Virus record (IMG/VR): IMGVR_UViG_3300043395_002393
Coordinates: 459-64,458 of that record
DNA: 64,000 nt
Source of the DNA: a virus
Lineage: Duplodnaviria; Caudoviricetes
Reading direction: 5' to 3' (one strand)
Shown: one piece after another, positions 1 to 14,679 of the stretch
Layout: the number at the start of each line of letters is the position of its first letter
Position numbering within the stretch: the stretch's first letter is position 1
The notes under the pieces: model-generated
The model's input: only the letters and a program-made list of their open reading frames with translations
The model's database searches: none
What the model was told of the DNA's origin: nothing
Program-made: the position numbers and the translations under genes

Positions 1-731
1 ATCGCGGCAACCTGGGCGCGGATAGCCTCGGCGGCGGCCGGGTAGGTCTCGGCGAGGGCGGAGGGGCAAAGCTGACGAAGCTCGCGGGCCAAGCGGCGGA
101 AGGTGGCGCGGTTGCGGTTGAGGTCGGCGCGGGCTTCCTCAAGGTCGAGCTCGTGGCGGTGCATCTCCTGAAACTCCCTCTCGTCCTCGGCCATGCGTTG
201 GGCGACGCTGTCGGCGCGGCGGACGGTGTCGCGGGCGGCGTCGCGGCGGATGTCGTCGGCGGCATAGCTGCTGTCGGCGTCGCTGTAGTCGATGCGCTCC
301 GCGCTTGTGAGGTCCACGCGCAATCCATCATCCCACGAGCTGCGGACGGCTTCGAAGATCAGGCCGGGGAAGTCGGCGAGAATGACGGCGGCGGCTTCCA
401 GCGTGTCCTGCTGGTGCTCGTCGGTGTACCAACCCCGGTGGCTGAGGAAGGTACGGCCGGGCCAGTAGTGGGAAACAAGGGGGGAGTCCTCGTTCGTCCA
501 TAGGGTGGGGGTGGGGGCGTCGGGAGCGGAAAGCTCCGGGCCGCTGTCGTAGTTACCGAGGCGGTAGGCGCGACGCTCGGCAAGGGTGTTGCCGGCGTAG
601 GTGGGGAGCTGGCGGAGGGCGGCAAGCTGCGAGGGGGCGCGGCGGGTCTGCCAGCGGGCGAGCCGGGCGGCCGGGGTGGTGCGGTTGCGCAGTGCGCGGG
701 TGATGTCGGCGATGGTCGGGGTCGGTTTCAT
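1..731 (-). CDS. Hypothetical early phage protein, runs off the window start (MKPTPTIADITRALRNR...)
   Basis: Manual translation: ATG at 731, open to position 1, GC3-rich codons. Absent from the ORF track because it has no stop in the window. Confidence 0.75.
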   Translation of the reverse strand, partial: MKPTPTIADITRALRNRTTPAARLARWQTRRAPSQLAALRQLPTYAGNTLAERRAYRLGNYDSGPELSAPDAPTPTLWTNEDSPLVSHYWPGRTFLSHRGWYTDEHQQDTLEAAAVILADFPGLIFEAVRSSWDDGLRVDLTSAERIDYSDADSSYAADDIRRDAARDTVRRADSVAQRMAEDEREFQEMHRHELDLEEARADLNRNRATFRRLARELRQLCPSALAETYPAAAEAIRAQVAA

Positions 732-762
732 GGGTCGAGGTGCTGCGGGGTTGGTGGTTGGG

Positions 763-987
763 CTAGGCGTCGGCGATGCGGCGGCAGTGCTGGCAAGGCT
801 TGTTCTCGGGGTTGTGCCGGTGCTCGGCGTCGATGGTTACCGGGGCGGAGTGACGCGGGAGTCCGCAAAGCGTGGCGGAGTAGTCCGGGCACATGATGTG
901 GGCCGGCTTGTTCCGGTGTTTCCATGCTCGGCGCATGGCGGCGGCCTGGTGCCAAGTAAGGGGTGCGGGGTGCGGGGTTGTGGTCAT
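763..987 (-). CDS. Small Cys/His protein (MTTTPHPAPL...AHIMC..TLCG..PCQHCRR), possible Zn-binding
   Basis: ATG at 987 overlaps the stop of the upstream ORF (ATGA); H-C-C-CxxC pattern. Confidence 0.6.
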   Translation of the reverse strand: MTTTPHPAPLTWHQAAAMRRAWKHRNKPAHIMCPDYSATLCGLPRHSAPVTIDAEHRHNPENKPCQHCRRIADA

Positions 988-1391
988 GGGGTGGTCTCGG
1001 TGATGAAAAGCACAGTGCAAGTGCCGGCGGGGTAAAGTGCGACCTGGTCGCCATAGTCGGCGCGGCGGCAGGGGTGGCCGGTCATGTCCAGCGCGGCCTT
1101 AGCCTGGCGGACGGCGTCGCGCATGGTGGCGGCAATGACGGTCCCTCGGCGGGTCCAAGAATAGTTCACTTCCCCTCCGAAGGTGTCGGTCCATTCGTAG
1201 GTGTAGGCGTTGGCGCGGATGACGGCGTAGGCATCGAGCCGGGCGGCGTGCTCGGCCGGGGTCAACTCCTCGTCGCTGAACTCGCGGCGGGCTTTGAGGA
1301 TGTCGGCAAGCACGGCGTCGAGGTCGAGGTCGGCGGGGCTGGTGTCGGCGAGGAAGTCGGCGAGGACGCGGCGGGCGGTGGCAAGTTTCAT
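984..1391 (-). CDS. Hypothetical early phage protein, 135 aa
   Basis: ORF with an ACC-rich leader following the repeated hairpin; GC3-rich. Confidence 0.7.
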   Translation of the reverse strand: MKLATARRVLADFLADTSPADLDLDAVLADILKARREFSDEELTPAEHAARLDAYAVIRANAYTYEWTDTFGGEVNYSWTRRGTVIAATMRDAVRQAKAALDMTGHPCRRADYGDQVALYPAGTCTVLFITETTP

Positions 1392-1411
1392 GGTGGTGCG
1401 GTGGTGGTTGT

Positions 1412-1442
1412 GGGCGGAGGGGTTGAACCTCCGCCCGTGGTG
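1412..1442. repeat. 31-bp intergenic hairpin repeat, copy 1 (GGGCGGAGG-GGTTGAA-CCTCCGCCC-GTGGTG)
   Basis: Identical to 1950-1980; 9-bp perfect stem. Confidence 0.9.
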
Positions 1443-1448
1443 CTGGTG

Positions 1449-1919
1449 CTAGTCGAGGCGGCCGGATGCGATGGCGGCGCGGACGGCGGGGAGGCTGGCG
1501 TTCTGCAAGTCCTCCTCGGTCACGGTGTCCACGTGTCCAAGGGCGAATTCGATGACGCGGGCGGACGCGGCGATTGTGACGGGGTCGTGGGGGAGTCGGG
1601 CGGGGCGGCGGCTCCATTTGCTCCATGCGGTGGCCATTACATCGGCGGGGGCGTGGTGTAGCTCGGCAAGGGTCACGCTGTCCCGGCGGCCGGCGATGTA
1701 GTCGCAAGCGGCGGCGGTCGCCTCGTCGCGCCATTGGGCGGCGGCGGCGTCGGTGGCGGTCCATCCAAGGGCGGCGAGGGCGGCAGCGGTGGCGAGGGCG
1801 GCAGCGGTGGCGATGCGGCGGCCGGCGGCGCGGGCCTGGGTGTGGCGGCGGCGATTGCGGCGGCGGGTCATGGGGCGGAGCATGGCGGCGGACTGGTGGG
1901 CGATAAGTGCGGGGCTCAT
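1449..1919 (-). CDS. Hypothetical early phage protein, 156 aa
   Basis: ORF bracketed by the two 31-bp repeats. Confidence 0.65.
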   Translation of the reverse strand: MSPALIAHQSAAMLRPMTRRRNRRRHTQARAAGRRIATAAALATAAALAALGWTATDAAAAQWRDEATAAACDYIAGRRDSVTLAELHHAPADVMATAWSKWSRRPARLPHDPVTIAASARVIEFALGHVDTVTEEDLQNASLPAVRAAIASGRLD

Positions 1920-1949
1920 GGTGTCGGGGTCGGTTGGTGGTGGTGGGTG

Positions 1950-1980
1950 GGGCGGAGGGGTTGAACCTCCGCCCGTGGTG
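1950..1980. repeat. 31-bp intergenic hairpin repeat, copy 2
   Basis: Identical to 1412-1442. Confidence 0.9.
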
Positions 1981-1985
1981 GGCGG

Positions 1986-2249
1986 TTAGCGGGCGGCGAG
2001 CTTGGCGACGGCGTCGCGGTCGAGGTCGATAGTGCCCTGTCCGTTCATGTTGCGGAAGGGGCGGACGGCAGACCAATCGGCAAAGCAGCCGGCGAGAAAG
2101 CGGGCGGCGGCGGCGGGGGTTTGGAACTCGTGGCGTCCTTCGTCCACGATGATCAGGATGCGCTTGCCGAAGTGTTCGGCGGTGGCGAGGGCGGCGGCGG
2201 TCTTGGCGAGGGCGGCGGCCTGGTCGGCGGTGGGGTATTGCGTAGGCAT
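1986..2249 (-). CDS. Hypothetical early phage protein, 87 aa; first gene of the leftward operon
   Basis: ORF directly after a sigma70-like promoter. Confidence 0.7.
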   Translation of the reverse strand: MPTQYPTADQAAALAKTAAALATAEHFGKRILIIVDEGRHEFQTPAAAARFLAGCFADWSAVRPFRNMNGQGTIDLDRDAVAKLAAR

Positions 2250-2255
2250 GGCGGG

Positions 2256-2283
2256 AGCATCGGGGAAATCGCAGGAAACGCAA
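2256..2283 (-). promoter_or_regulatory. Putative sigma70-type promoter TTGCGT-N16-GATGCT, 6 nt before ATG 2249 (leaderless)
   Basis: Hexamer match plus an upstream A-tract (UP-element-like). Confidence 0.45.
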
Positions 2284-2486
2284 GCAATTTTTTCTTCATC
2301 GTGTTGCGATTGTTTGCAAGTGGTTGTTTTCCAGTGGGTTGTGACGATAAAGTTTTTTAGCGGATGAAATGGGACGGCGTGGGGGATTTTCGATTTCAGC
2401 GGATGAAAAGGGCGGGGGCATATCTTCCGGGCATAAGTGGCTGAAAATGAAAGCGTGGCGGGTTTATTCGATTTCAGGAGATTTCT

Positions 2487-3012
2487 CTATCTGGCATTAC
2501 AACTCGAACAGCGGCGTGACGTGCCAGATATGGGAAAGTGGGTCGGAAAGGCGTTGAAAATGAAGGGGTTGCGAAGATCGGGCGCGGCGAGGGGTCGAGG
2601 TCGTGCCAGATACGTGCCAGATATGTGCCACGGTTGCGAGCCGTTGAAAATGAACGGGTTGCGAGGTAGATATGGTATATCTGGCACGTCACCAGCCGGT
2701 TTTGGGTCTGGCGGGGAGGGGGGAATATTTTTTCGGGTGGTGGAAAAAATCGCTCCCCCGTGTGGGGAGGTCGTTTAGAGTCGATGACGTGCCAGATATG
2801 GGAAAACACGGTTTTTCGGCTTGCGCAAGTGCTTGAAAATTAATGGAAAATGGTCAAATTGTCTATCTGGCATTACATCTGGCGCGTATCTGGCGCATGA
2901 CTTCGGGCTTCCGGGTGGCGGAATGGTGAAATCCCTTGTGGCTCTAGGGCTAGCGGGCGGCGTTTGGCGTATCTGGCACGTCATGGGCGATTTGTTAGAC
3001 AAGTGCCAGATA
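2487..3012. repeat. Array of about 10 GCCAGAT(A) motifs in both orientations plus IHF-like AATGAAnnnnTTG boxes; putative packaging or origin region
   Basis: TGACGTGCCAGATATGGGAAA at 2517 and 2785; CTATCTGGCATTACA at 2487 and 2863; further copies at 2603, 2614, 2677, 2887, 2970, 3003; CGTTGAAAATGAA(G/C)GGGTTGCGA at 2552 and 2642. Confidence 0.8.
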
Positions 3013-3061
3013 GGTCAAAGCGGGGTTTATTCGATTCCAGCGAAAATCGTCTGCGGGGCGC

Positions 3062-3240
3062 GGCTGCTGGTCGGCCGGTCGGCTGGTCGGCTGGTGCTGG
3101 TGCTGGTCGGCTGGTCGGCTGGTGCTGGTCGGCTGGTGCTGGTCGGCTGGTGCTGGTGCTGGTGCTGGTGCTGGTGCTGGTGCTGGTGCATCCTGGGCGC
3201 GGCTGGTGCATCCTGGGCGCGGCTGGTGCTGGTGCAGCCT
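3062..3240 (+). repeat. Simple tandem repeats (CTGGTG)n / GGCTGGTC / CATCCTGGGCGCGGCTGGTG x2
   Basis: Directly visible low-complexity tandem array. Confidence 0.9.
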
Positions 3241-3246
3241 GGGCGC

Positions 3247-3275
3247 TTGCCAGCGGCCGCCGGTTGCGGCATGGT
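3247..3275 (+). promoter_or_regulatory. Putative promoter TTGCCA-N17-CATGGT, 7 nt before ATG 3283
   Basis: Canonical spacing; leaderless arrangement. Confidence 0.45.
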
Positions 3276-3282
3276 GTGGGTG

Positions 3283-3990
3283 ATGTCACTTCTCGAATCG
3301 GTCACAAAGCAGGGCGGGACGCCGGAAGTCCGGGAGGCGCGGCGGTTGTTTCTCTACGGTGCCGGCGATGGCGTGAGGGTGCTCAAGGTCGAGCGGCTGG
3401 CGGAATTGTCGGGTGCTCACCAGCAGTCGATCCGCAAGTGGATTCCGACCTGGGAGGCGGAGCTGGAAAAGATCGTCGCGAATTCGTCGGAATTTGGACT
3501 AGAAATGCGGTTAAATGCCGAAATTCTGGCAAAACACGAAAGCGACTGTTCACAAATTCGCCGTAAAATTGATGCGCAACTCGCTGAATTAGAGCAACTT
3601 CCGAAGATCGAAAAGTCGCTTCTCGCCGCCGTTCGGGCGGTCGCGGATTGTGGAAATCCTACAGCGGCCGATTCCGCGGTTGCGCTGCTGTCTAAGTTTT
3701 TTGAAGCGGGCAACTATCGCAGGACGGCGGAGGCGCACCTGCTCAAGCTGCAAGCTCACTGGTCCCGGATGGCCGGCATCGAGTCCTTGCAAGCGGTGGC
3801 GGAAACGCGGGAGAAAGCGCTTGCAACCGGTCGAGCGAAGCTCCGGCTTAAGAGCGAAGCGGCGGAGGCCGGCGCGGCTGGTGGCGATGGTGCGCGGCCG
3901 GCCGGCGGGTCCAGCGTCGCCGGCGGCGTCTTTGCCAAGCGGTCGCCAGCTGCTCCGGTCGTCGAGTCCATCACGGAAGATGACGTTTGA
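3283..3990 (+). CDS. Putative terminase small subunit / HTH DNA-binding protein, 235 aa
   Basis: N-terminal HTH-like ARRLFL..VERLAELSGAHQQSIRKW, helical body, position beside the repeat-rich non-coding region. Start placed at MSLLES rather than at ORF-track 2821. Confidence 0.5.
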   Translation: MSLLESVTKQGGTPEVREARRLFLYGAGDGVRVLKVERLAELSGAHQQSIRKWIPTWEAELEKIVANSSEFGLEMRLNAEILAKHESDCSQIRRKIDAQLAELEQLPKIEKSLLAAVRAVADCGNPTAADSAVALLSKFFEAGNYRRTAEAHLLKLQAHWSRMAGIESLQAVAETREKALATGRAKLRLKSEAAEAGAAGGDGARPAGGSSVAGGVFAKRSPAAPVVESITEDDV

Positions 3991-4369
3991 CGCTGGCGCG
4001 GCGTCGCCGGCTCGTTTCGGATTCTCCATCGCCGGCTCGCCGGCCGGGTCGCGGCGTCTCTGGTTCTCCGGTTCCGGTTGCTGACCGGATCGCCGGTTGA
4101 CCAGGGCGGAGGCTAGCGGGGCGGGGGCATAGGGGCGCAAGGGACCCCCGGGAGCCGGCGGCGAGGGGGTACGGGGGCTTGCCGGTGCGATTCGCCAGCG
4201 AGACCGACCTCGGGAGCGGTGTGCATACACTGAGACCATTTTCAGTCCTGAAACCCGAAAACGCGAAATCCGGCTACAGTAAAGGGGAAGGGAACCCCGG
4301 ACCCCCATACCCCGGTTGCCAAGGGACCCCCTACGGGGGCCTTCAGGAACCCCTGAATTAACTTGTCGA

Positions 4370-4400
4370 TTGACAGCGCAATTAACGTCCCTATTGTTGC
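4370..4400 (+). promoter_or_regulatory. sigma70 promoter TTGACA-N16-TATTGT with ATTAAC spacer motif
   Basis: Near-consensus hexamers; same architecture as 9982-10012. Confidence 0.65.
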
Positions 4401-4407
4401 CCCCACC

Positions 4408-5205
4408 ATGAACCCCACCGACCACGCCGCGATGCTGCGGCAGACATCCGCCCTGATGGAAGAAGCCGCCCGCGCCGTGGAGCGTGTGGAGGAGCTTGAA
4501 GCCCAGCTTGAGAAGCACCACGTCAACGGGAAGCGGCTCGAAGCTGCCATGCCGCCGCCCAACCCGATCCATCTGCAACCGTTAGTGGAGCGAGTTCTCT
4601 CTCGGTTGGGTCGGTATGAAGAGCTGTTTTCCGAAAACGAGGAGCTTCGTCGTGAGAACGCCGGGTTGAGAAGCGAGATCACCTCGCTCGGAAACCACGC
4701 CATCTGCCGCTTGAACTTGCTGGGCGATATTCACCGTGTCCTCGGTTCGGACGGCGGGGAGACGGGGGCGAACATGTTGACGGGAGTCCCGCCCGAGCTG
4801 GCCCGGCTGCCGAAGCGGATCGAGCGGCTCATCCGCGAGAACGAGACGCTGGCCCGCAACGTGCCGCCCGAACCCTCGGTCACCTCGCTCGACGGGGTGC
4901 ACTACGCCCAAACGACCGAAGCGGCACCGGAGAAGCCTTTCGCGTGGACTGGGAAAACCCCAGAAGAGCAGGCGGCTCTGGACGAGCTGAACGCCCTGGC
5001 GACCACCTGCCGGATCGTCGGACAACAGTGGTGCTCCACGTCAGGAAACCGCACCTTGTCGGACGCAGTCCAATTCTACATCGACCACCCGCTCTCGGGT
5101 AAGGTGTTGGTCCTCTGCAACGTCAACCAGAACGTCGTAACGGGGGCCTTGACCTACGAGCCCGTGCGCGTTAGCGATCTCCCCTCTCTCCCCTCTCTCC
5201 CCTGA
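4408..5205 (+). CDS. Hypothetical coiled-coil protein, 265 aa
   Basis: ORF starting MNPTDH after CCCACC; heptad repeats. Confidence 0.7.
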   Translation: MNPTDHAAMLRQTSALMEEAARAVERVEELEAQLEKHHVNGKRLEAAMPPPNPIHLQPLVERVLSRLGRYEELFSENEELRRENAGLRSEITSLGNHAICRLNLLGDIHRVLGSDGGETGANMLTGVPPELARLPKRIERLIRENETLARNVPPEPSVTSLDGVHYAQTTEAAPEKPFAWTGKTPEEQAALDELNALATTCRIVGQQWCSTSGNRTLSDAVQFYIDHPLSGKVLVLCNVNQNVVTGALTYEPVRVSDLPSLPSLP

Positions 5206-5211
5206 ATTTTT

Positions 5212-5595
5212 GGGTGCCCCGGGTTTCGACGTGATTCCGGTTCACCAATGTAGCACGCGGAGGTTGATCGGCTGGCCTCCTAAAAAGCCGATCGCAAGAC
5301 CAACTGGCAACAATGACCAGATCCCCGATTACGCGCCGAGCCTGGCCGAAGCCGACGAGATCCTCGCCCGCTTCGCGACCGAGCTTGAACTCGTCTGAGG
5401 GAGCACGCCCCGGAGCCGGCCGACGCAGGCCCGGGGAAACAATGCGTCGGAAAAACAGTCTGCATCCTGCCGATGATGCAGTGGTGGAGGTGACCGGAAA
5501 CGGTCGCCTTATGGTGCCCGGCGTCATCCGGGACAAGCGTGTAGAAGCATTGGTGACAGGTGTCGCGGACAGTGGTTCAACTCCACTGGCATCCC
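5212..5595 (+). ncRNA. ssrA: Phage-encoded tmRNA
   Basis: Acceptor stem GGGTGCC/GGCATCC with G3-U; GGTTTCGAC after the 5' end; helix 2 (TCACCAATGT/GCATTGGTGA, GCACGC/GCGTGT); PK1 GGAGG/CCTCC + GATCGGCT/AGCCGATC; T-arm AGTGG-TTCAACT-CCACT; internal tag ORF. Confidence 0.92.
5306..5398 (+). other. tmRNA tag reading frame (A)GNNDQIPDYAPSLAEADEILARFATELELV*
   Basis: Resume codon GGC after CAACT just downstream of PK1; TGA at 5396-5398. Confidence 0.8.
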
Positions 5596-5648
5596 CTTTC
5601 CATTTTTGGCTTGTAAAAAGCGCCAGAAACCGGCAAATCCGGCGGCGC

Positions 5649-6173
5649 ATGAACAAGTCCAACCGATTGTTGAAAGCTGCCTTTGAGCGAGGCTACCGGG
5701 TCAATGAGCGCGGCGAAGTAGTGAGCCCGAAAGGGCGAGTGAGAAAGCCTCAACAGCATCTCAAAAAGTGCGGCTACTGCGTAGCGATCTTCACGGTAGA
5801 CGATCGTGAAGGGACAAGCTACCCACTCAGAGTCCATCGGCTGCTAGCCTACCAGATGTTCGGCGACCGGGTGTTCGAGCCAGGAATCGAGGTCCGACAC
5901 CTCGATGGAAACTCGCTGAACAACACACCTGAAAACATCGCGCTCGGGACACCGTCCCAGAACGCGCTTGATCGCCCTCCGATCGACCGCAGGCTTCACG
6001 CCAGTGTCGCAGGAAAGGCTCAGTCACCGCACACGGACGAAACATGGGCGGCTGTTCGTGCGGACCGCGCGGCCGGGATGGGGTACAAGAAGCTCCGGGC
6101 AAAGTATGGGATTGGGCTTTCAACCTTATCCTTCCAACTCTCGAAAACTGCCAAGCGCAGGACTCCTTTTTGA
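5649..6173 (+). CDS. HNH homing endonuclease, 174 aa
   Basis: VHRLLA..VRHLDGNSLNNTPENIALGTPSQN motif, C-terminal HTH; lower GC than flanks. Confidence 0.9.
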   Translation: MNKSNRLLKAAFERGYRVNERGEVVSPKGRVRKPQQHLKKCGYCVAIFTVDDREGTSYPLRVHRLLAYQMFGDRVFEPGIEVRHLDGNSLNNTPENIALGTPSQNALDRPPIDRRLHASVAGKAQSPHTDETWAAVRADRAAGMGYKKLRAKYGIGLSTLSFQLSKTAKRRTPF

Positions 6174-6177
6174 CGAC

Positions 6178-6702
6178 ATGAATGCAACAGTGAAGACAGC
6201 ACAGATGGGCCTCGCCGCAGGTGAGGTGGTGGAAGTGGTCAACCGCGGCGTCCGGTCCTGCGTGGTCCGCAGCGGCAACCGCGAGATCAACGTGACGGTG
6301 CCGACCGAGGACCTCGACTTCTCGGGACCGATTGACGGGCCGCCGCCCGAACCGGGCGAAACCAGCGACATTGGAACCACCCCGGCACCGGTGGAGAACG
6401 CCGCGCCCTACGACCCGGAGACGGACCCCGCGGTGAAGGATCTGGACGATCCGAACAACGTCATGCGGTCTGAAAAGACCATCGAGGTCCTGCCGGACTC
6501 CTGCGACGAGGAGCTGCCCGATACGATCGGCGGTGAGCCGACCAGCGAGGTCGAGTCCAAGCGGACCTTGCTCGATGACGAGCGCGACGTGGATGCGTTC
6601 CCGGAAGCCCACACGTCCGCCGACGACAGCGACCTCGACGAGGAGCTGCCGGAGCCCCAGGGCGGCTGCACCGACGGCGAGAGCTGCGAGGCGTGCCAAT
6701 GA
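6178..6702 (+). CDS. Acidic protein with small N-terminal beta domain and C-terminal CTDGESCEACQ tail
   Basis: ATG 6178; D/E-rich linker; terminal CxxC. Confidence 0.75.
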   Translation: MNATVKTAQMGLAAGEVVEVVNRGVRSCVVRSGNREINVTVPTEDLDFSGPIDGPPPEPGETSDIGTTPAPVENAAPYDPETDPAVKDLDDPNNVMRSEKTIEVLPDSCDEELPDTIGGEPTSEVESKRTLLDDERDVDAFPEAHTSADDSDLDEELPEPQGGCTDGESCEACQ

Positions 6703-6750
6703 CCTTCCGGCCGGATCGACCGGCGTAAGCAGCCGTCGCTCGGTCCACGC

Positions 6751-6781
6751 AAAGCCCGCGCCCTACCAAGGCGCGGGCTTT
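6751..6781. terminator. Bidirectional intrinsic terminator
   Basis: AAAGCCCGCGCC-N7-GGCGCGGGCTTT between convergent genes. Confidence 0.8.
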
Positions 6782-6799
6782 CTGCTTGGCAGAATCAAA

Positions 6800-7381
6800 C
6801 TACCCGTGGTTCGCAAAGGCCCCGTGGTAGCGCAGCCGGGCGGCTTGAATTGTGCGGATGGCGTCTTCCTTTTCCTCGAAATACCCGAAGTGGTGCAGCT
6901 TTCCATCAAAGTAGAGCCGGACCTGCCACTTTTTCATCGGTCGGAACCAGTAGACCCCTTTGACCCCGCTGGTGCTGTTCCGCCCAAGCTGAGAGTTCCG
7001 GGCGTTCTCTTTCGTCGTAGCCAGTCTCAAATTGGCGATTCGGTTGTCATCGCGGATTCCGTTAATGTGGTCGATTGGAAGGCGTGGCCACTCTCCATGA
7101 GTCAGTGCCCAAGCCGCCCAGTGGCCCGTCATGTTGGACTTCTGAAGCCGAAAGACTCGGTAGCCTTGAATTGAGATGCTGCCGGGGCTTTTTCCACTGA
7201 AACGAAGGTTCCACATCCGCATGTCACACTCCCGAGGAAAGTGGTGCTTTGGGCGTGTTTTCCAACGAAGTTCTCCGGTAGCTGGATCGTAATCAACAGC
7301 TTCTCGAAGGATTTGAACGTCAGGCTTGTCAGCGTGGAGACAAACCGCTAGGGTTCCTCCATCGGATTCATGGTCACTCAT
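6800..7381 (-). CDS. HNH-AP2 homing endonuclease
   Basis: YDPATGELRW, IDHINGIRDDNRIANLRLATTKEN, NSTSGVKGV..WQVRL..HFGYF (AP2). Start codon uncertain. Confidence 0.92.
   Translation of the reverse strand: MSDHESDGGTLAVCLHADKPDVQILREAVDYDPATGELRWKTRPKHHFPRECDMRMWNLRFSGKSPGSISIQGYRVFRLQKSNMTGHWAAWALTHGEWPRLPIDHINGIRDDNRIANLRLATTKENARNSQLGRNSTSGVKGVYWFRPMKKWQVRLYFDGKLHHFGYFEEKEDAIRTIQAARLRYHGAFANHG
7326..7354 (+). promoter_or_regulatory. Promoter TTGTCA-N17-TAGGGT, antisense to the HNH-AP2 5' end, likely driving the fibre operon
   Basis: Good hexamers with 17-bp spacing. Confidence 0.5.
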
Positions 7382-7390
7382 GGTTCTGTA

Positions 7391-7477
7391 GGGTCGGGAG
7401 TCTGCCTCATACAGACTCCCGACCCGATCGGCATACCACGCCCGCGAAAGTGGGTCAAGCATCCCTACGAAAGTAGG
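7391..7477. other. Intergenic hairpin cluster: 14-bp perfect IR plus two GAAA-tetraloop hairpins
   Basis: GGGTCGGGAGTCTG/CAGACTCCCGACCC (7391-7425); GCCCGC-GAAA-GTGGGT (7440-7455); CCTAC-GAAA-GTAGG (7464-7477). Confidence 0.7.
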
Positions 7478-7499
7478 CAACCCGAACCAACAGAAACAA

Positions 7500-7886
7500 A
7501 TGAAACAACTGATTAGCTGGCTGTCGCGGCTCGAAGCCGCTCAGATCGCAGCCACCGTCGTGTCCACCGTCGCCGCGACGATCACTCGCGCCCAAGCTGT
7601 TCGCCACGTCTTCGTGTCGAACGCCGGCGCGTCCGGTGCCGTCACGTTCACCCTCCCGCCCGCTGAGCCGGGTCTCCGGGTGACCGCGATCGTCGAAGCC
7701 GCGCAGCAGCTCCGGCTCGACCCGAGCGGCACCGAGACCGTCGCTCTGCCCTCCACCGGCGTTCAGTCGGCCGCGGGCAAGTACATCTGGGCCGATGCCG
7801 CGACCGAGCACGTCAACTTGGTCTGCCTCGTAAAGGGCACCTGGGATGTCGTCGGCTTCAGCGGCACCTGGACCGCGGAGGTATAA
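7500..7886 (+). CDS. Small virion/fibre-associated beta protein, 128 aa
   Basis: SNAGASGAVTFTLP motif resembling those of neighbouring fibre proteins. Confidence 0.65.
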   Translation: MKQLISWLSRLEAAQIAATVVSTVAATITRAQAVRHVFVSNAGASGAVTFTLPPAEPGLRVTAIVEAAQQLRLDPSGTETVALPSTGVQSAAGKYIWADAATEHVNLVCLVKGTWDVVGFSGTWTAEV

Positions 7887-7954
7887 GCCCCACACCCTAG
7901 CGGCGGCCCGGCTCCCCCGGGTCGCCGCACCCCTTCTCCACCCGATCGCCGCCC

Positions 7955-8857
7955 ATGCTCACCATTACCAGAGGGAGGACTTTCGCGTTCGACGCTACGA
8001 TCTACGACACCTACGTCGCGGACGGCGACCCGGCCAACGTGCCGACCAACCACACCGGCTGGACGATCCGCAGCCAGATTAGGACCAAGGTGGGCAACAA
8101 GCTCGTGGCGAACCTCAACGTCACGTTCCCGGTGCCTACGGCCGGCACCATCGCCATCCGGCACCAGCGCGAGTTCACGCGCAGCCTCCCCGTCGGCGAC
8201 TACTGGTGGGACATCGTCGCCACCGACCCCTCTGGCGCCGACCACGTCTACGTCGAGCCCGAGCCGATCAGCGTCAAGGACCACCCGACCGATCCGGCCG
8301 ACGCGACCTACAGCTTCGTCCCCGGCGGCGGCGGGGTCATCTCCCACACCCACTCGATCTCGGACGTTACCGGGCTGCAAGAAGTCCTCGACGGACTGGA
8401 GCTTCCGCCCGGCGGCACGATCGCCCACTACCTTCGCGGCGACCGCACTTGGCAGACCCTCGGCAAGTCCTCGGTGGGTCTGAACAACGTCCAGAACATC
8501 AACATCACCACCTGGGCCGGCAGCACGAGCCTCACGACTCTCGGCTTGGTGACCAACTTCAACGTCACCGGCGTCCGCACGGCGGTTCGCATCGTCACCG
8601 CCGACACCACGCTGACCGATCAGGACCACACGGTCCTCGTGGACGCCTCCGCGGGGCCGGTCGAGATCACGCTCCCGGCGGTGTCCGCGCACCTCAAACG
8701 GGAGTATCGGATCAAGAAGGTGGACGGCACCGCGAACGTGGTCACCATCACCGCCGCCGGCGGTGACACGATCGAAGGCGAGCCCTTCCTCGATACCGAC
8801 ATCCCCGGCGAGAGCCTCACGATCCAAGGCTTCGGAACCAACTGGAACATTCACTGA
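7955..8857 (+). CDS. Tail fibre/adaptor protein, 300 aa
   Basis: N-terminal baseplate-type beta domain, HTHSISDVTGLQ fibre repeat, YLRGDRTW, C-terminal VDASAGPVEITLP module. Confidence 0.75.
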   Translation: MLTITRGRTFAFDATIYDTYVADGDPANVPTNHTGWTIRSQIRTKVGNKLVANLNVTFPVPTAGTIAIRHQREFTRSLPVGDYWWDIVATDPSGADHVYVEPEPISVKDHPTDPADATYSFVPGGGGVISHTHSISDVTGLQEVLDGLELPPGGTIAHYLRGDRTWQTLGKSSVGLNNVQNINITTWAGSTSLTTLGLVTNFNVTGVRTAVRIVTADTTLTDQDHTVLVDASAGPVEITLPAVSAHLKREYRIKKVDGTANVVTITAAGGDTIEGEPFLDTDIPGESLTIQGFGTNWNIH

Positions 8858-8860
8858 GCC

Positions 8861-9985
8861 ATGAGCACCTCCCGCACCATCCGCATCCAGGACAACGGGC
8901 TCACCCGGACGATCGTCCGGCCGGTCGGTCCCGCAGGACCGGCAGGAGCCGCCGGCGCCCCCGGCTCGATGACCGGCCCGGTCGGCGCGACGGCGGACGC
9001 CATCGCCCTGTTCGACGGCACCACGGGCAACGTCCTGAAGAACTCGAACGTGCTGCTCTCGGCGCTGGCGACCGCGGCCAATCTCGCCGCCGGCCTCGAC
9101 GGCAAGCAGGACGTGGAGGACGGCAAGGGCTTGTCCGAGGAGAACTTCACGGCGGCGCTGAAGGCCAAACTCGACGCCCTTGGCACCGCGACCTACCGCG
9201 GCGCATACCCGTCGCTCGCGCACCTGCAAGCGGCGGTCCCCGCGGGCAACCCCGGCGACTACGCCCACGTCGAGGTCTCTGGCAGCGACCTGAAGCTCTA
9301 CCACTGGGACTCCGAGAACGACTCTTGGCAGATCGGCGTGGATCTCAGCGGCAAGGTGGACAAGGTCACCGGCAAGGCTCTCTCGACCAACGACTTCACG
9401 GACTTCTACAAGGGCTTGATCGAAACCGCGGTGCAGACCAGCACCTTCGAGGCGGCGTTCGACGGCTTGGACACCGCAGTGGCGGCGTTCACCGCGCACA
9501 TCGAGGCGGTCTACAACCCACACCCTTCGACGTTCGCCGGCATCGGCGTGGACAACGGAACGACTCAAGAGTCGGTTGCGAGCAACACGGTGCAGGCGGT
9601 GACCGCCTTCAGCACCGCGGCCGGGTTCAACGAGCCCGCCAACGACTGCGTCTCGAACCGGGTCAACAACCGGGTCGAGATCACCCGCACCGGCCGCTAC
9701 AAGGTGGACTGGTCGCTGTCGATCGCCGCGGACTCCAACAACGTCCAGCTCTACGGCGGCGTGATGGTTGGAGGATCGCTGGTGGCCTCGGGGCAGGCGG
9801 CGACCAAGATCGAGAACATCGCGGATCGCCACTTCATGGGCGGCACGGCGATCATCGAGATCGGAAGCACCGCAGGGACCGCGGGGCACGTTCAGATGGC
9901 GGTCTGGCACGGGCACGGGAGCACGCTCAACCTGACGCCCAGCTTCGCGGGCCTGGTGGTCGTCCGGCTCGGAGATTCGCCTTGA
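8861..9985 (+). CDS. Tail fibre-like protein with short collagen-like G-x-y stretch, 374 aa
   Basis: GPAGPAGAAGAPG; KQDVEDGKGLSEENFT and KVDKVTGKALSTNDFT fibre repeats; C-terminal C1q/TNF-like beta head. Confidence 0.75.
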   Translation: MSTSRTIRIQDNGLTRTIVRPVGPAGPAGAAGAPGSMTGPVGATADAIALFDGTTGNVLKNSNVLLSALATAANLAAGLDGKQDVEDGKGLSEENFTAALKAKLDALGTATYRGAYPSLAHLQAAVPAGNPGDYAHVEVSGSDLKLYHWDSENDSWQIGVDLSGKVDKVTGKALSTNDFTDFYKGLIETAVQTSTFEAAFDGLDTAVAAFTAHIEAVYNPHPSTFAGIGVDNGTTQESVASNTVQAVTAFSTAAGFNEPANDCVSNRVNNRVEITRTGRYKVDWSLSIAADSNNVQLYGGVMVGGSLVASGQAATKIENIADRHFMGGTAIIEIGSTAGTAGHVQMAVWHGHGSTLNLTPSFAGLVVVRLGDSP

Positions 9986-10012
9986 CGGCACGATTAACTG
10001 ACGCATTGTTGC
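9982..10012 (+). promoter_or_regulatory. Promoter TTGACG-N16-CATTGT with ATTAAC spacer motif
   Basis: Matches 4370-4400 in motif and spacing. Confidence 0.6.
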
Positions 10013-10019
10013 GTCGTTC

Positions 10020-10196
10020 ATGGCTGTCCTCAAAGTCAACCTGCCGAAACCGGAGCCCAAGAAGCGCGGGGGGAAGCGTCCCACGGTGCTCGTGGCGATG
10101 ACCGTCGCGGAGCTTCGTGAGAAGGTGGGGGACGATGCGGTCGTCATGGTCGGTCGCAAGCATCTTGGTCGATTGCTTGCACGGTCGCTGGGTTAG
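10020..10196 (+). CDS. Small basic protein, 58 aa (MAVLKVNLPKPEPKKRGGKRP...), moron-like unit
   Basis: Manual translation (below the ORF-track cutoff); has its own promoter and terminator. Confidence 0.7.
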   Translation: MAVLKVNLPKPEPKKRGGKRPTVLVAMTVAELREKVGDDAVVMVGRKHLGRLLARSLG

Positions 10197-10200
10197 CGAG

Positions 10201-10235
10201 GGCCGCGCCGGAAGTGTGCCCCGGCGCGGCCTTTT
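10201..10235 (+). terminator. Intrinsic terminator
   Basis: GGCCGCGCCGG-N9-CCGGCGCGGCC-TTTT. Confidence 0.8.
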
Positions 10236-10275
10236 CCTGTTGCATCCTACCCGCTCTTCGGGTAGACCTCGCCGC

Positions 10276-10521
10276 ATGAGCCTGCTCATCGACGAAGGAC
10301 TTGTCACCGCATCCAAGGACGTGCCGAACATGCCCATGGGCAGGACCGTGTTCATCCAAACCGACGCCGAGCTGTCGCTGGCATGGTTCGACCCGAACAC
10401 CAAGGCGTTCGGCGCCACACAGACCATCTCGACCCCTGGCGAAGAGGTCAGCGTGCCGAGTTACAAGGCCCGCATCACCACCGCGACTACCGCGAACATC
10501 CGCATTGTCCTCCAACCGTAA
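10276..10521 (+). CDS. Hypothetical small virion-associated protein, 81 aa
   Basis: ATG 10276 after TTGCAT-N17-TAGACC; GC3-rich. Confidence 0.65.
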   Translation: MSLLIDEGLVTASKDVPNMPMGRTVFIQTDAELSLAWFDPNTKAFGATQTISTPGEEVSVPSYKARITTATTANIRIVLQP

Positions 10522-10527
10522 TCGACC

Positions 10528-12498
10528 ATGAGCTTCATCAAAGGATCAGGATTTGTCCACGACGCCGGAGGCTCCGTCACCGCTGCCGGCCTCGTCACCG
10601 CCGCCGGGAGCATGACCGACACCCAAGAGCGTGATTTCCGCGGGTCTATCGGCATTCGCAAGGCCGACATCCGTAACACCCAGCGGCACGTCGCCGCGAA
10701 GTCTCGCGCATGGGGATCGTCTTCAACCGATCCGATCCGCGTCATGATCGCGGGCGACTCGCTTTCGACGAATATCGAGCCGCTCGAAAACATGGGGGTT
10801 ACGGGCTATTTCAGCCAAGCCTACCACCTCACCGCTGGGTCAGCGCCGTCGGTTATTGCATCGGATGACTGGATCAACGGGCGAGTCATCGCCATTCCGG
10901 TCGGTGCCACGGTCCAATTCCACCCCACCGGCGGCATCGACGCCGCGTTTGCCTGCTCGAAAATCTCCATTGGATACATCGCGGAAACCGGCGCGGGCGG
11001 ATTCGACATCGAGACCAGCACCCCGCAACGGAGCAGCGGAGCGTGGGAAAAAGTCGGCGTCACTCAGAACACCGAGAACGCAACGAAGATTGGCAAGTGG
11101 TATGACGTGGATGTTCCCAGCACCTCCACGGCACCCGCTTACAAGGTCCGCATCACCAACATCACCGGCAAGCCGCTCAAGCTCATTTGTTGGGGAGTCT
11201 GGAACCACCTGACATGGGGAGTCACTTGGATTTCCGGCGTGGCGAATCTGACCGGCCGCGACGTGACATCGTGGGCGACCTGCCCATCTGCGATTTACAC
11301 GCCGATCATCACCGGGCTACGCCCTGACATGGTGATTTCGCGCTGGGCCGACGCCGCCGCGAGTTGGGATTCAGGCGGGGCATTCCGCACGGAATACGAC
11401 CGGATGAAGGCGATTCTGCCGCAGTGTGATTTCGTCCAGTTGTCCGGTGGCCCGGCCTACAACGGACCGGACAGCGGAGTTGCATGGCCGACTTACTACG
11501 CCGCGCAGTCTCAATACCGAGTCGGCGACGTGGCCGTCGCGCAAAACGACACCACGAAGCTATGGGGCCGCTACACTTGCACCGTCGCGCACACCCAGCA
11601 GGCCGACCGAAAACCGGGGCAGGGAGCGGCATGGGCAAGTTATTGGACGGCCTACGCCTACGACAGCGCCATCACCACGACCAGCGACTCGGAATTCGAA
11701 GCGCAGGCGAAAAGCCAAGAGCTTTGGGCGGCGTCCGCCGGGGAAACCTTCCTCGACCTCCGCGACGTTTTCGGCCCTTACCTCCAAGCGTTCACGAACG
11801 GGCTGATCGGCGATTTTGTCCATCCCACTGCGGCCGGATGGGAGTCGATGATGGCGGAGATCAATCAGCGACTGGACGCTGCAAAAATCCCGATGGGCGG
11901 CTTCTCGGTCGGCGGTCTTTTTTCATTCCAGATCACCGCCGGGAATGGATATGCTCGTCTTGATCGCCCTCTGGAAGTCGGGTCGAGCAGCTTGGGAGGG
12001 AATCCGGCAATTCGCGTTGTAGCCTCTGACGCCGGGACCGATTCCAGAAAGGCTTTGACCCTCACAGCATCGGGCGCGGCGGGTATTTTTAACGTCGATG
12101 GAACCAGCATCTTCAGCATGGTCTTGTCCGCCAACGGCGCTGGGCAGCACGCTCTGGTTCCGGTCAACAGCTCCGTTTCCGTGGGCATCCCCGCAACTCG
12201 CATGAGGGCGTGGCTTGGGGGCGTGGCATCCGGCACGCGGACGATCACCGGCGCGACGACGTTGGCGGGGGCAACCGACCATACCGCCTATTGCGACGCT
12301 ACCTCGGGCGCTTTTACTGTGACGTTGCCAACAGCATCGACGGTATCAGGGCAGCTTTTTGTCCTCAAGAAAATCGACAGCAGCGGCAACGCCGTGACGA
12401 TTGGAGGAACCGTCGATGGCCTAGTGAACCCGACGTTGACGACGCAGTGGCAAGTCCTTCGCGTTCGGTCTAACGGCACCACCTACTATTCGGAATGA
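10528..12498 (+). CDS. Tailspike with SGNH/GDSL esterase domain and inserted CBM-like module, 656 aa
   Basis: IAGDSLS (block I), DFVHP (block V), YRVGDV..YTCTVAHT..PG..W (CBM5/12-like), C-terminal CDATSGAFTVTLP module. Confidence 0.75.
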   Translation: MSFIKGSGFVHDAGGSVTAAGLVTAAGSMTDTQERDFRGSIGIRKADIRNTQRHVAAKSRAWGSSSTDPIRVMIAGDSLSTNIEPLENMGVTGYFSQAYHLTAGSAPSVIASDDWINGRVIAIPVGATVQFHPTGGIDAAFACSKISIGYIAETGAGGFDIETSTPQRSSGAWEKVGVTQNTENATKIGKWYDVDVPSTSTAPAYKVRITNITGKPLKLICWGVWNHLTWGVTWISGVANLTGRDVTSWATCPSAIYTPIITGLRPDMVISRWADAAASWDSGGAFRTEYDRMKAILPQCDFVQLSGGPAYNGPDSGVAWPTYYAAQSQYRVGDVAVAQNDTTKLWGRYTCTVAHTQQADRKPGQGAAWASYWTAYAYDSAITTTSDSEFEAQAKSQELWAASAGETFLDLRDVFGPYLQAFTNGLIGDFVHPTAAGWESMMAEINQRLDAAKIPMGGFSVGGLFSFQITAGNGYARLDRPLEVGSSSLGGNPAIRVVASDAGTDSRKALTLTASGAAGIFNVDGTSIFSMVLSANGAGQHALVPVNSSVSVGIPATRMRAWLGGVASGTRTITGATTLAGATDHTAYCDATSGAFTVTLPTASTVSGQLFVLKKIDSSGNAVTIGGTVDGLVNPTLTTQWQVLRVRSNGTTYYSE

Positions 12499-12713
12499 AA
12501 CACCTCGCCCTCACCCTCGCCTGGCTCGCTGGCTGCACCGCCTTCTGCCTCTCCCTCTCCGGTTGCGGCCTCCACGCCCCCGCCACCTGGGCCGACCGCC
12601 CCAATCCCCTCGACGATATCGCCTCCCCGGAGATCGAGCCCGAGGCCAACGGGCACTGGGGTCCATTTGGCACCGCGCCCGCCAGCCACCGCAACTTCAA
12701 CGGTTCGCCATGA
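12495..12713 (+). CDS. Small lipoprotein (lysis region)
   Basis: Signal peptide with LSGC lipobox; ATGA overlaps on both sides. Confidence 0.6.
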   Translation: MKHLALTLAWLAGCTAFCLSLSGCGLHAPATWADRPNPLDDIASPEIEPEANGHWGPFGTAPASHRNFNGSP

Positions 12714-13288
12714 AGACGGCCATCGTCACCTTCCAGGGATTCACCGAAGACCTCGGCAGCTCGACCGGAACGGAACGTCTCTGGCAGAAGCTCCGACCCC
12801 TCGCGTCTCCTGACCTTCTGGTGACCCAACCGGCGGCGTGGGACGCCCGCACCGATCGGGCCGCGGCGTTCCTCCAACGCCAGCAAATCGAGCGCGTCGT
12901 CATCGTCGGCTATTCCTGGGGGGCCGGTTACGCCTCCCAACGCTTCGCCCGCGAGTGTGGGGAGCGCGGCCTCAGCGTGCCTCTCATGGTGCTGTGCGAC
13001 CCGGTCTACCGCCCCCTGTGGTTGCCCCCATTGCTGCCTCTTCTACCTCTCGCCTTCCGCGCCCTTATTCCTGGCGCGGCGTCCATCAAGATTCCCCGGA
13101 ATGTCCGCCGCGTCGCATGGGTCCGCCAGACCCTCTCTCTGCCGATGGGTCATCCCATCGACGCCGACCCCTACGCAACCGTGGTCGAGGACGCCGTTCT
13201 TCTCCCCTATGGTCATACCGCCATCGACGAGTCCTCTGAATGGCACGCTCTCGCTCTCGACAAAATCACCACCTACCTTCACCCCTGA
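12710..13288 (+). CDS. Alpha/beta hydrolase (LysB/cutinase-like), 192 aa
   Basis: GYSWG nucleophile elbow, LCDPV, GHTAID; start MKTAIV at 12710. Confidence 0.8.
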   Translation: MKTAIVTFQGFTEDLGSSTGTERLWQKLRPLASPDLLVTQPAAWDARTDRAAAFLQRQQIERVVIVGYSWGAGYASQRFARECGERGLSVPLMVLCDPVYRPLWLPPLLPLLPLAFRALIPGAASIKIPRNVRRVAWVRQTLSLPMGHPIDADPYATVVEDAVLLPYGHTAIDESSEWHALALDKITTYLHP

Positions 13289-13299
13289 ATCCCGCACCC

Positions 13300-13548
13300 A
13301 TGGAAATCTCGGACGCATCAGCAGTTGGAGCCGTTGTCAGCCTGTGCGCCGTCGTCGGCAGCCTTGGAGGCATCATCTACAAGACGCTCTCCAGTGCCAT
13401 CGCGGCGCTTGAGAAGCGGGTGTCTCAAACCGAGGCAAAGGCCGATAGCTGCGAAAAGGACCGCGAGGACTTGCGTCAGCAAATCACCACTCTTGACCGC
13501 TCCATCTCACGTTGCTCCGCTCCGGTTTGCCCGCTTCGCGCCAAATGA
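13300..13548 (+). CDS. Single-TM coiled-coil protein, putative holin/lysis membrane protein
   Basis: Hydrophobic N-terminus AVGAVVSLCAVVGSLGGIIY followed by coiled coil; lysis context. Confidence 0.6.
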   Translation: MEISDASAVGAVVSLCAVVGSLGGIIYKTLSSAIAALEKRVSQTEAKADSCEKDREDLRQQITTLDRSISRCSAPVCPLRAK

Positions 13549-13769
13549 CCCGTCGTTCCCCACCTCCGGTTCTCCTTGTGCTCCTCTCCGCCCTCTACTT
13601 CAGCGGAGCGCATACCTCCGCCCTGAGTGTCCCGCCGGTTCGTTGGCGCACAGCCTCCCGTTTTGAAGCCAAACGTCGCTGAGTGCATGATCCGACGCCT
13701 GCTCACCTACATTGCCACGTTCCGGCAGCGGGCGTTGCTCCGCCAGCTTGCGCACAAACGATTCCGCCC

Positions 13770-13928
13770 ATGAAACTCCTTCGCACCATCTGGCATCTCA
13801 TCGTCCTTGTCATCGCGGTCCTCTACGCCGTGAGCTGCACGATGACCATCTCCGCCGACGGTTCGAAGTCCTTCTCCATCGACGGTGAAGAGGCAGCTCG
13901 GGCCATCGAAATCCTCTCTGACAAATGA
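13770..13928 (+). CDS. Small lipoprotein, possible outer-membrane spanin component, 52 aa
   Basis: MKLLR + hydrophobic stretch + AVSC lipobox; overlaps the start of the endolysin-like gene. Confidence 0.6.
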   Translation: MKLLRTIWHLIVLVIAVLYAVSCTMTISADGSKSFSIDGEEAARAIEILSDK

Positions 13929-14557: not shown

Positions 14558-14573
14558 CCGCAAGATCCCGACG

Positions 14574-14664: not shown

Positions 14665-14679
14665 AACCTCAAACACACC

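Follow-up and report, generated by a model that had tools for sequence, protein, structure and literature searches.

The window analysed here, a stretch of 64,000 nucleotides (nt), comprises bases 459–64458 of a 64,458-base IMG/VR virus record (IMGVR_UViG_3300043395_002393) that is classed as linear and is about 79% complete according to CheckV. Its source is a novel freshwater phage. On its plus strand, the window carries a one-piece ssrA gene encoding a transfer-messenger RNA (tmRNA), which is flanked by replication genes and other phage genes. The gene begins 6 nt past the stop codon of an upstream open reading frame (ORF; 4363–5205), and its 3' boundary coincides with an insert that contains an HNH endonuclease ORF. 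Contigs of four other public runs (X3, X4, X6 and X7) were compared with the window over those parts of positions 4300–7300 that they cover. The features of the tmRNA and of the insert are the following:

5212–5598, plus strand: one-piece tmRNA gene (ssrA), matching Rfam family RF00023, with its body at 5212–5594
5212–5218, plus strand: 5' strand of the acceptor stem, GGGUGCC, with G3 of the G3:U70 pair at 5214
5259–5290, plus strand: pseudoknot 1 (PK1) stretch of 32 nt, identical to Verrucomicrobiales tmRNAs
5306–5398, plus strand: tag reading frame GNNDQIPDYAPSLAEADEILARFATELELV of 30 codons, with the resume codon GGC and the stop codon TGA at 5396–5398
5571–5587, plus strand: T arm AGUGG-UUCAACU-CCACU, with a 5-bp stem and the loop TTCAACT
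5588–5594, plus strand: 3' strand of the acceptor stem, GGCAUCC, with U70 at 5592
5595, plus strand: discriminator position, C, the first base of the HNH insert
5595–6164, plus strand: insert of 570 bp, missing from one X4 contig, which has a single A instead; CCTTT stands at 5595–5599 and again at 6165–6169
5649–6173, plus strand: HNH endonuclease ORF of 174 amino acids (aa), matching PF13392 (HNH_3) with an E-value of 5.3e-10 and 39.2 bits against a cut-off of 24.8

The tmRNA gene is recognised by the Rfam model RF00023 over its full length (5212–5598, plus strand; model positions 1–374 of 374) with 89.9 bits, the gathering score being 47, and an E-value of 1.3e-33. This is the sole Rfam family match in the window. 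An initial annotation, made from the letters of the DNA, had described a complete tmRNA architecture amid phage genes and had named RF00023 as a check; the full-length match to a one-piece tmRNA within a phage genome bears this out. The acceptor stem is paired at 7/7 positions, including G1-C72, G2-C71 and G3:U70, the last of which is a determinant for alanyl-tRNA synthetase (AlaRS). The annotation had correctly given this stem as GGGTGCC/GGCATCC with G3-U. Its description of the stem as atypical does not hold, as the type is common to other phage-type tmRNAs, namely those at the loci L120 and L139 (GGGTGCG/CGCATCC).

The tRNA-like domain contains both the T arm and the D-loop analogue (GGNUUCGAC), and GGTTTCGAC is invariant across the tmRNA alignment. 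The window tmRNA retains the D-loop analogue GGUUUCGAC. Helix 2 comprises about 27 pairs formed by TCACCAATG/CATTGGTGA, compared with CGCGCTGG/CCAGTGTTG in the host-type tmRNAs of the Verrucomicrobiales, and the changes are compensatory. Its strands differ from those of the hosts yet remain complementary, which marks an RNA whose evolution after its divergence from the host type has been structurally constrained. Every pair of PK1, which sits just upstream of the resume codon, is canonical in the Rfam alignment. Downstream of the tag, CCCCGG/CCGGGG and CCGACGCA/UGCGUCGG appear, by eye, to form an H-type knot, followed by more GC-rich hairpins. The minimum free energy of the fold is −170.9 kcal/mol (z = −3.9), and 0 of 100 shuffled sequences fold as well.

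The consensus resume codon is placed by the Rfam alignment on GGC at 5306–5308. Translation of 5306–5398 yields the 30-aa tag ending in -ELELV that had been read in the initial annotation, and ARAGORN at a 95% threshold (-ps) reports the same tag, GNNDQIPDYAPSLAEADEILARFATELELV*, for a 'tmRNAp' at 5212–5596. Two alternative frames were rejected: the GCA frame is open to 6173 and the TGG frame has only 3 codons before a stop, while the GGC frame is supported by Rfam and ARAGORN. A Gly resume codon is likewise predicted for L120 and for several viral tmRNAs. A variant from run X4, which is about 95% identical over 5208–5410, carries an in-frame 3-nt deletion at 5376. This deletion is compatible with a translated frame, a single indel being weak evidence.

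The window tag does not have the typical hydrophobic (L/V/Y)AA end. When the codons are aligned, the host sequence GAG CTC GCA CTG GCC GCT TAA (ELALAA*) faces GAG CTT GAA CTC GTC TGA (ELELV*) in the window. The residues E, L and L are kept, GCA has become GAA and GCC has become GTC, both through second-position changes, and the final Ala is missing. Because the sister tmRNA at L120 keeps ELALAA, this was the ancestral end, and Ala-Ala was lost specifically in the lineage of the window. For enterobacteria, ssrA variants ending in -AAV and -ASV are reported to be still degraded in a ClpXP-dependent manner, less efficiently than -LVA (PMC11003136). On the basis of its sequence, -ELELV is read as a weakened or altered degron that replaces the canonical Ala-Ala ClpX degron; it is neither a proven null nor proof that tagged products are spared, as the initial annotation had suggested they may be.

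Tag endings were also surveyed in an arbitrary sample of 115 IMG/VR loci, 68 of which gave an ARAGORN tmRNA call (69 calls). The tag ends in AA in 56/69 calls and in other residues in 13/69, some of which are probably miscalls. Six of these 13 tags end in Val (AV 3, LV 2, TV 1), and four of the six (L154, L171, L207 and L265) belong to loci in which between 2 and 22 tRNA genes are present as well. The Val ending may be a recurrent phage-specific degron change. As a separate observation, the Val-ended viral tmRNAs (the four above, L163 and L221) are mostly two-piece and have cyanobacterial-style tags (-PVAV, -TALV, -ATLV, -SLAV, -EVTV); several of their loci contain 10–22 tRNA genes.

The ancestry of the tmRNA was traced through a high-depth contig of run X7, which tracks the phage RNA to 5290 and then continues into a canonical-looking tag region. 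A 22-nt motif from this continuation has 110 matching stretches in the species-genome collection. Among the 80 listed titles of these 110, 79 are Verrucomicrobiota, comprising Luteolibacter, Haloferula, Akkermansiaceae or Akkermansia, Prosthecobacter and Verrucomicrobiales. The sole other label among the 80 is that of L087 (CAVTPD010000001.1), a 2.4-Mb contig named 'uncultured Cytophagales bacterium', which may be a mislabelled metagenome-assembled genome. The 110 loci were fetched, and the host-type tag ADSNELALAA* was found in 13/13 of those scanned by ARAGORN; nine Verrucomicrobiota tmRNA loci reach Rfam scores of 146–165 bits. The 32-nt PK1 stretch of the window (5259–5290) occurs exactly in 37 genome stretches, 37/37 of which bear Verrucomicrobiota names. 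Identity to the Verrucomicrobiota tmRNAs amounts to 77–84% over the 5' 72–88 nt and to about 78% over the 3' 61–65 nt. The G+C content of the Verrucomicrobiota loci is 46.5–67%, with a median of 57.7% (94 loci of at least 4 kb), compared with 63.9% in the phage. Judged by these sequence matches, the window tmRNA descends from a Verrucomicrobiales ssrA, which identifies this order as the donor lineage and suggests it as the host.

The chromosomal tmRNA of the Verrucomicrobiales (Luteolibacter, Haloferula, Akkermansiaceae type) resembles the window tmRNA in being one-piece, in having the same D-loop analogue, in its PK1, identical over 32 nt, in the homologous tag end (ELALAA vs ELELV), and in that CCA is often unencoded (33/96). 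It differs in its tag, ADSNELALAA, which is 10 aa long instead of 30, in its resume codon, GCA instead of GGC, and in its acceptor stem, GGGGGCG/CGCCUCC instead of a stem with U4:A69. In addition, it has A73 in 96/96 loci, whereas the window has C, and the window RNA exceeds it by about 30 nt and has an additional hairpin. The initial annotation had named a match with the host tmRNA as a possible refutation, and in both respects it had listed, tag ending (ADSNELALAA in 13/13) and discriminator (A73 in 96/96), the Verrucomicrobiales differ from the window.

A sister tmRNA is located at L120 (3295–10060; IMGVR_UViG_3300042363_001418). The two share derived features, namely U4:A69, the GGC resume codon, an extra hairpin followed by GGUGGAGG, and a UUCAAYU T loop. 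The L120 tag has 29 codons, compared with 30 in the window. In contrast to the window tmRNA, that of L120 keeps -ELALAA and A73-CCA and is detected by ARAGORN at default settings. Its surroundings also differ, as L120 is a viral contig with 38% G+C and no tblastx similarity to the window, and its tmRNA closes an array of 11 tRNA genes that comes with two group I introns. Four metagenome contigs (L125, L129, L134 and L136) carry this tmRNA as well. The 29-aa L120 tag, GKAKNVVNAIFGRGSRNESFVGGELALAA, ends like the Verrucomicrobiales host tag. A further long-tag tmRNA, AKPSLESLVPFDMIVSQGFGQRLAA, was observed at L139 (1251–1648; Ga0070686_100015347), a metagenome contig of 63% G+C. It is of the same U4:A69 type with the GGUGGAGG motif, and L139 may be a third member of this phage-type tmRNA group.

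The position of the gene within the phage genome was examined by comparison with relatives. A polymerase query in IMG/VR returned one relative, G001 (62,458 bases; CheckV 100%), whose polymerase is 64% identical and which is syntenic with the window along its length (tblastx). No RF00023 match was found in G001, even at E ≤ 1. The flanking features of the window are the following:

4363–5205, plus strand: upstream ORF of up to 280 aa, without a family match; stop codon at 5203–5205; C-terminus homologous in G001
4370–4397, plus strand: sigma-70-like promoter match TTGACA-16-TATTGT, with 10/12 consensus positions; 1 site against a shuffle mean of 0.3
6178–6702, plus strand: downstream conserved ORF (MNATVKTAQMG...), whose G001 homologue abuts the upstream-ORF homologue (ATGA overlap)

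Fine alignment pairs window 4834–4879 with G001 32978–32933 and window 6178–6316 with G001 32733–32595. In G001, the homologue of the upstream ORF overlaps, by ATGA, the homologue of the ORF that starts at window 6178. As the homologues of the flanking ORFs abut in G001, the stretch 5206–6177, with the tmRNA and the HNH ORF, is cleanly extra in the window. The window tmRNA is thus an accessory gene.

This comparison bears on a further explanation, in which the locus would be the host's own ssrA beside an integrated prophage, or a chimeric contig. The ssrA gene is described as a common prophage integration site (PMC3029335, PMC9004378), and the first 4 kb of the window show an unusual GC skew. 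However, phage-type genes syntenic with G001 lie on both sides (3283–4879 and from 6178 on), and a tyrosine integrase (PF00589) was not found in the 64,458-base record, of which 44 ORFs were also scanned against PHROGs. Furthermore, the tag and C73 are unlike those of all 96 host-type tmRNAs, the identity to host tmRNAs is only about 80%, and the same arrangement is present in independent runs. Such an artefact is therefore considered extremely improbable.

Further relatives of the tmRNA were sought with sequence patterns. Neither the exact 21-mer of the T arm and acceptor nor degenerate patterns back-translated from the start and the middle of the tag had any match in viral contigs. The tag-middle pattern gave 9 matches in genome contigs. 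Three of these (L146, L148 and L150) were scanned with Rfam and rejected, as they lack a tmRNA; L148 reads as protein-coding. A looser T-arm/acceptor pattern matched 22 metagenome loci, none close to the window tmRNA, and L122 was dismissed as a relative since it is an unrelated AT-rich partial tmRNA. No loci related to the 280-aa upstream ORF were found in viral contigs, and none related to a 684-aa conserved ORF in genome contigs.

The 3' end of the gene deviates from all tmRNAs used for comparison. The bases that follow the acceptor stem are CCTTT, so that the discriminator is C and CCA is not encoded, as had been noted in the initial annotation. The missing ACCA recorded there is ordinary: encoded CCA is lacking in 33/96 Verrucomicrobiota tmRNA genes and in 10/41 viral one-piece tmRNAs. 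C73 itself occurs in 0/140 comparators, A73 being present in 96/96 Verrucomicrobiota, 41/41 viral one-piece tmRNAs, L120, L139 and Bxz1. The Verrucomicrobiota count covers the 96 loci with a parsable 3' end, 14 of the 110 being not parsable, and the 41 viral tmRNAs are ARAGORN calls among the 115 listed IMG/VR loci.

From its sequence, the 570-bp stretch 5595–6164 is interpreted as a free-standing homing-endonuclease insert. In one X4 contig, position 5594 is joined to 6165, with 570 bp skipped and one A in between. The window reads CCTTTTTGACGACATG at 6165, and the empty site thus reads GGCATCC-A-CCTTTTTGACGAC-ATG, which is A73 followed by CC; the same sequence can be written ...GGCATCC-A-CCTTTTTGACG.... 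A second X4 contig (5518–6194) contains the 3' end of the tmRNA and the HNH ORF with a gapless junction and shows 44 differences in 677 nt (about 6.5% diverged). Hence, the HNH gene displays a presence/absence polymorphism at a fixed site, with both states in run X4. Since the A could not arise if the insert were simply lost through its flanking repeats, the A-bearing form is best taken as the ancestral empty site. The best reading is that the HNH insertion replaced the ancestral A73(CC) with C(C) at the exact 3' boundary of the tmRNA.

The initial annotation had singled out the C discriminator. It looks less like something designed than like a by-product of a mobile element, as C5595 is the first base of the insert and the HNH-free contig has A. 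C73 is most simply the scar of this element. It is best seen as collateral damage that the phage tolerates, and the C73/HNH form is retained in a lineage about 6.5% diverged. A histidine identity conferred by C73 was considered and rejected: bacterial tRNA-His needs G-1, whereas G5212 is preceded by T. Free-standing HNH homing endonuclease genes of phages, such as the T4 mob/seg-type genes, often lie next to tRNA genes. The window has in common with them a small HNH_3 ORF between genes and a presence/absence polymorphism at one site of a natural population. Unlike the usual free-standing genes, the HNH gene in the window, a putative homing-endonuclease gene, adjoins a structured RNA gene and removes its discriminator.

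A73 is described as conserved throughout prokaryotic tRNA-Ala, and mutating it is reported to impair severely the recognition of minihelices by AlaRS (PMC9976931). For this reason, the C73 form is probably a poorer AlaRS substrate. A poorly charged C73 RNA could bind host SmpB, titrate it and shut down host trans-translation, and a role as an SmpB decoy had been put forward in the initial annotation. The elements that contact SmpB (GGUUUCGAC, helix 2a and the T arm) are host-like, C73 should reduce alanylation (PMC9976931), and a phage smpB was not found in the record. A precedent is given by the mycobacteriophage DS6A, which has little beyond the tRNA-like domain; such a molecule is reported to inhibit tmRNA strongly (PMC4131195, citing Mao et al. 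2009). However, a decoy needs no mRNA-like domain, and the window tmRNA keeps PK1, a resume codon in a host-like context, a 30-codon frame with a stop, and downstream helices. With its full mRNA-like domain and pseudoknot region, it does not conform to the DS6A type of a tRNA-like domain only. The HNH-free variant has the canonical A73, and poor charging is therefore not a fixed property of this tmRNA lineage. In addition, the sister tmRNA at L120 has A73-CCA and the canonical ELALAA end. The decoy is thus disfavoured by the retention of the whole mRNA-like domain, PK1 and the 30-codon frame, and is regarded as improbable.

The locus is therefore read as a genuine phage-borne ssrA, which most likely performs classical trans-translation in the infected cell; this reading is given a somewhat better than even chance. 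It builds on the gene as observed, with its ancestry, conserved architecture and accessory status, the HNH polymorphism and the rarity of C73. From these, we infer expression, processing, charging and tagging as well as the fate of the tagged proteins. The tmRNA would be transcribed together with the upstream ORF, which ends 6 nt ahead of it; the promoter match at 4370–4397, upstream of that ORF, is a candidate for driving both. The true start of the upstream ORF probably lies after the promoter match. Maturation would be carried out by host RNase P and a 3' nuclease, and CCA would be added by the host CCA-adding enzyme. Once charged with Ala by host AlaRS, the RNA would be brought by host SmpB and EF-Tu to ribosomes that have stalled on broken mRNAs. 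The use of host SmpB is proposed because the tRNA-like domain is host-like. With its acceptor stem, D-loop analogue, T arm, helix 2 and PK1, the RNA has retained all that it requires for working with the host machinery. Translation would resume at GGC (5306), adding Ala and 30 residues (A-GNNDQ...ELELV), and would end at UGA. The benefit to the phage probably lies in additional capacity for ribosome rescue at a time when infection leads to the cutting of host and phage mRNAs, with the proteolytic signal of the tag altered.

The initial annotation had seen no smpB in the window, and a PF01668 search of the whole 64,458-base record agrees with this. A CCA-adding enzyme (PF01743) was likewise not found in the record. 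As the record is only about 79% complete, this does not prove that either gene is absent from the whole phage.

A known system with similar features is that of the Bxz1-like (cluster C1) mycobacteriophages, lytic phages that carry a full-length one-piece tmRNA without an encoded CCA. The Bxz1 tmRNA is present in 207 phage records, in some of which the tag peptide is annotated. For these phages, no phage SmpB is reported in the literature searched, in line with the window record. The Bxz1 tag is also long and acidic, with 25 aa, and ends in -ALV rather than -AA (ARAGORN: ATDTDATVTDAEIEAFFAEEAAALV*). In contrast to the window, Bxz1 keeps A73, its tmRNA lies in a large tRNA array (9 tRNAs in 3.4 kb) while ARAGORN at default settings finds 0 tRNA genes in the window, its host belongs to a different phylum, and nucleotide similarity is absent. 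A tag motif seemingly shared with Bxz1, 'EI.A.FA...LV', was dropped, because BLASTP gave no alignment and 1960 of 5000 shuffles scored as well.

Several observations weigh against a working tmRNA. ARAGORN at default settings reports 0 tmRNA genes in the window, so that the ARAGORN check named in the initial annotation succeeds, with the same tag, only at the relaxed threshold; even there, the call carries a 'p' flag. The Rfam score of 89.9 is well below that of L120 (120.6) and of the hosts (146–165). In the part containing PK2–PK4, the Rfam alignment has a low posterior probability and several non-canonical pairs. The nearest relative, G001, does without a tmRNA. C73 probably lowers charging by AlaRS, by analogy with tRNA-Ala, and the HNH-bearing form is possibly poorly charged. 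The HNH-free junction has its sole support in the X4 empty-site contig of 110 nt, which has a depth of 2.8 and a shorter side of 30 letters. The X7 contig matches through 5598 (CCTT, no A) and then continues into unrelated sequence; as this A-less end stands in another context, C73 is not tied to this one insert alone. The ancestry of the tmRNA names a donor lineage, which is not necessarily the present host, and a phage with a tmRNA of a different class than that of its host has been published (PMC9004378). Finally, none of the runs recorded as RNA was listed as containing 4300–7300, which speaks neither for nor against expression; transcription, end maturation and charging are inferred.

Many of these points would also fit a crippled passenger, a once functional gene that now decays neutrally, with a mutated degron, a discriminator lost to the HNH gene, a drifting pseudoknot region and no present use. 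C73 in 0/140 comparators, the failure of default ARAGORN with the relaxed label 'tmRNAp', the lowest Rfam score among all tmRNAs compared, and the absence of the gene from the closest relative, which is 100% complete by CheckV, all speak for such decay. The same is true of 5410–5482, which is 'same length, diverged' in the X4 variant. On the other hand, the acceptor stem (7/7 pairs), the T arm, helix 2 (about 27 pairs) and PK1 have stayed whole, the tag frame is open over its 30 codons, and the sole variant indel preserves it. Moreover, the HNH-bearing A-less junction persists in the contig that is about 6.5% diverged and in runs of other studies, and this arrangement is therefore not a fresh lesion. 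Neutral decay is accordingly judged unlikely, though it is taken seriously.

The wider genome setting is that of a phage distant from known isolates. A blastn search of 1–20000 (near mode) against INPHARED for isolate-phage relatives gave no match, and neither did one of 5150–5650 (distant mode) for isolate-phage tmRNA relatives. The family A DNA polymerase of the window shares no more than about 33% identity with that of any isolate phage. It is part of a replication module on the minus strand at 45–58 kb, which also includes a gp2.5-like single-stranded DNA-binding protein, an exonuclease, a primase and a helicase. The window further encodes a Gam-like protein, a tail-fibre-like protein and many ORFs without a family. 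On the plus strand, 36031–44877 is an ORF of 2948 aa that is conserved in G001 and has no Pfam, PHROG or PDB-sequence match. Its size and position would be compatible with a giant protein associated with the virion.

Several repeats were observed elsewhere in the window. The end of the upstream ORF (5170–5205) consists of a short CTCCCCTCT repeat coding for ...PSLPSLP*, where the G001 homologue ends in ...LPEVSTQ* instead. The intergenic region 2480–3020, located between divergent gene blocks, contains at least 10 copies of the motif GTGCCAGATA/TATCTGGCAC in both orientations. These include perfect inverted pairs of 15–16 nt and are interleaved with TTGAAAATGAA and GATTTCAG repeats. The region has the appearance of operators or iterons, as for an origin or early control. 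Imperfect tandem repeats of 6, 12 and 14 nt (GCTGGT, GGTCGGCTGGT and GCATCCTGGGCGC) occupy 3056–3246, upstream of or at the start of an ORF beginning near 3290. Two identical 31-nt copies of GGGCGGAGGGGTTGAACCTCCGCCCGTGGTG, each with a GC-rich hairpin, lie at 1412–1442 and 1950–1980 between small genes of the minus strand and may serve as terminators or as a regulatory hairpin.

Phage tmRNAs are already known, as are non-AA tag endings (Bxz1 -ALV). The 2014 update of the tmRNA Website lists Bxz1-like mycobacteriophages, Bacillus phage G and DS6A (tRNA-like domain only) (PMC4131195), 402 of 18,146 phage genomes (about 2%) are reported to have a tmRNA by ARAGORN (PMC9004378), and huge phages are described as carrying tmRNA and SmpB (PMC7162821). 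Because ARAGORN at default settings misses variants such as that in the window, counts of phage tmRNAs are underestimates. A functional study of a phage tmRNA or a discussion of non-AA tag endings was not found in the literature searched, where supplementary tables (e.g. Table S1 of PMC9004378) may list tags. What is new is that the RNA is of Verrucomicrobia-type origin, that ELELV can be derived codon by codon from ELALAA, and that C73 occurs and is linked to the HNH insertion. The locus clearly exemplifies the insertion of a homing-endonuclease gene at the nucleotide that functionally ends a structured RNA gene. For a freshwater phage that could not otherwise be placed, it also points to the Verrucomicrobiales as host or donor.

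Natural allelic contrasts are available in the form of the host-type ADSNELALAA with A73 as the likely ancestor, the long ELALAA tag with A73 in the sister phage, and A73 without the HNH gene versus C73 with it. These contrasts make it testable whether the phage tmRNA tags proteins and whether the loss of Ala-Ala changes the fate of tagged proteins. A more far-reaching idea, which is held to be rather unlikely, is that phage tmRNAs constitute a functional class of their own. Host-compatible rescue would be kept, while the tag would be repeatedly rewritten into a longer form with a Val-ended tail in place of Ala-Ala. Tagged products would then be degraded slowly or rerouted, and C73, throttling charging, would be a tolerated or tuned state. 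Examples behind this idea are the change from ELALAA to ELELV in the window, -ALV in about 200 Bxz1-like phages, and -AV, -LV or -TV in 6/69 viral calls, mostly at tRNA-rich loci. If true, such rewriting of the tag would allow ribosomes to be recycled during infection without saturation of ClpXP, or would spare truncated phage proteins.

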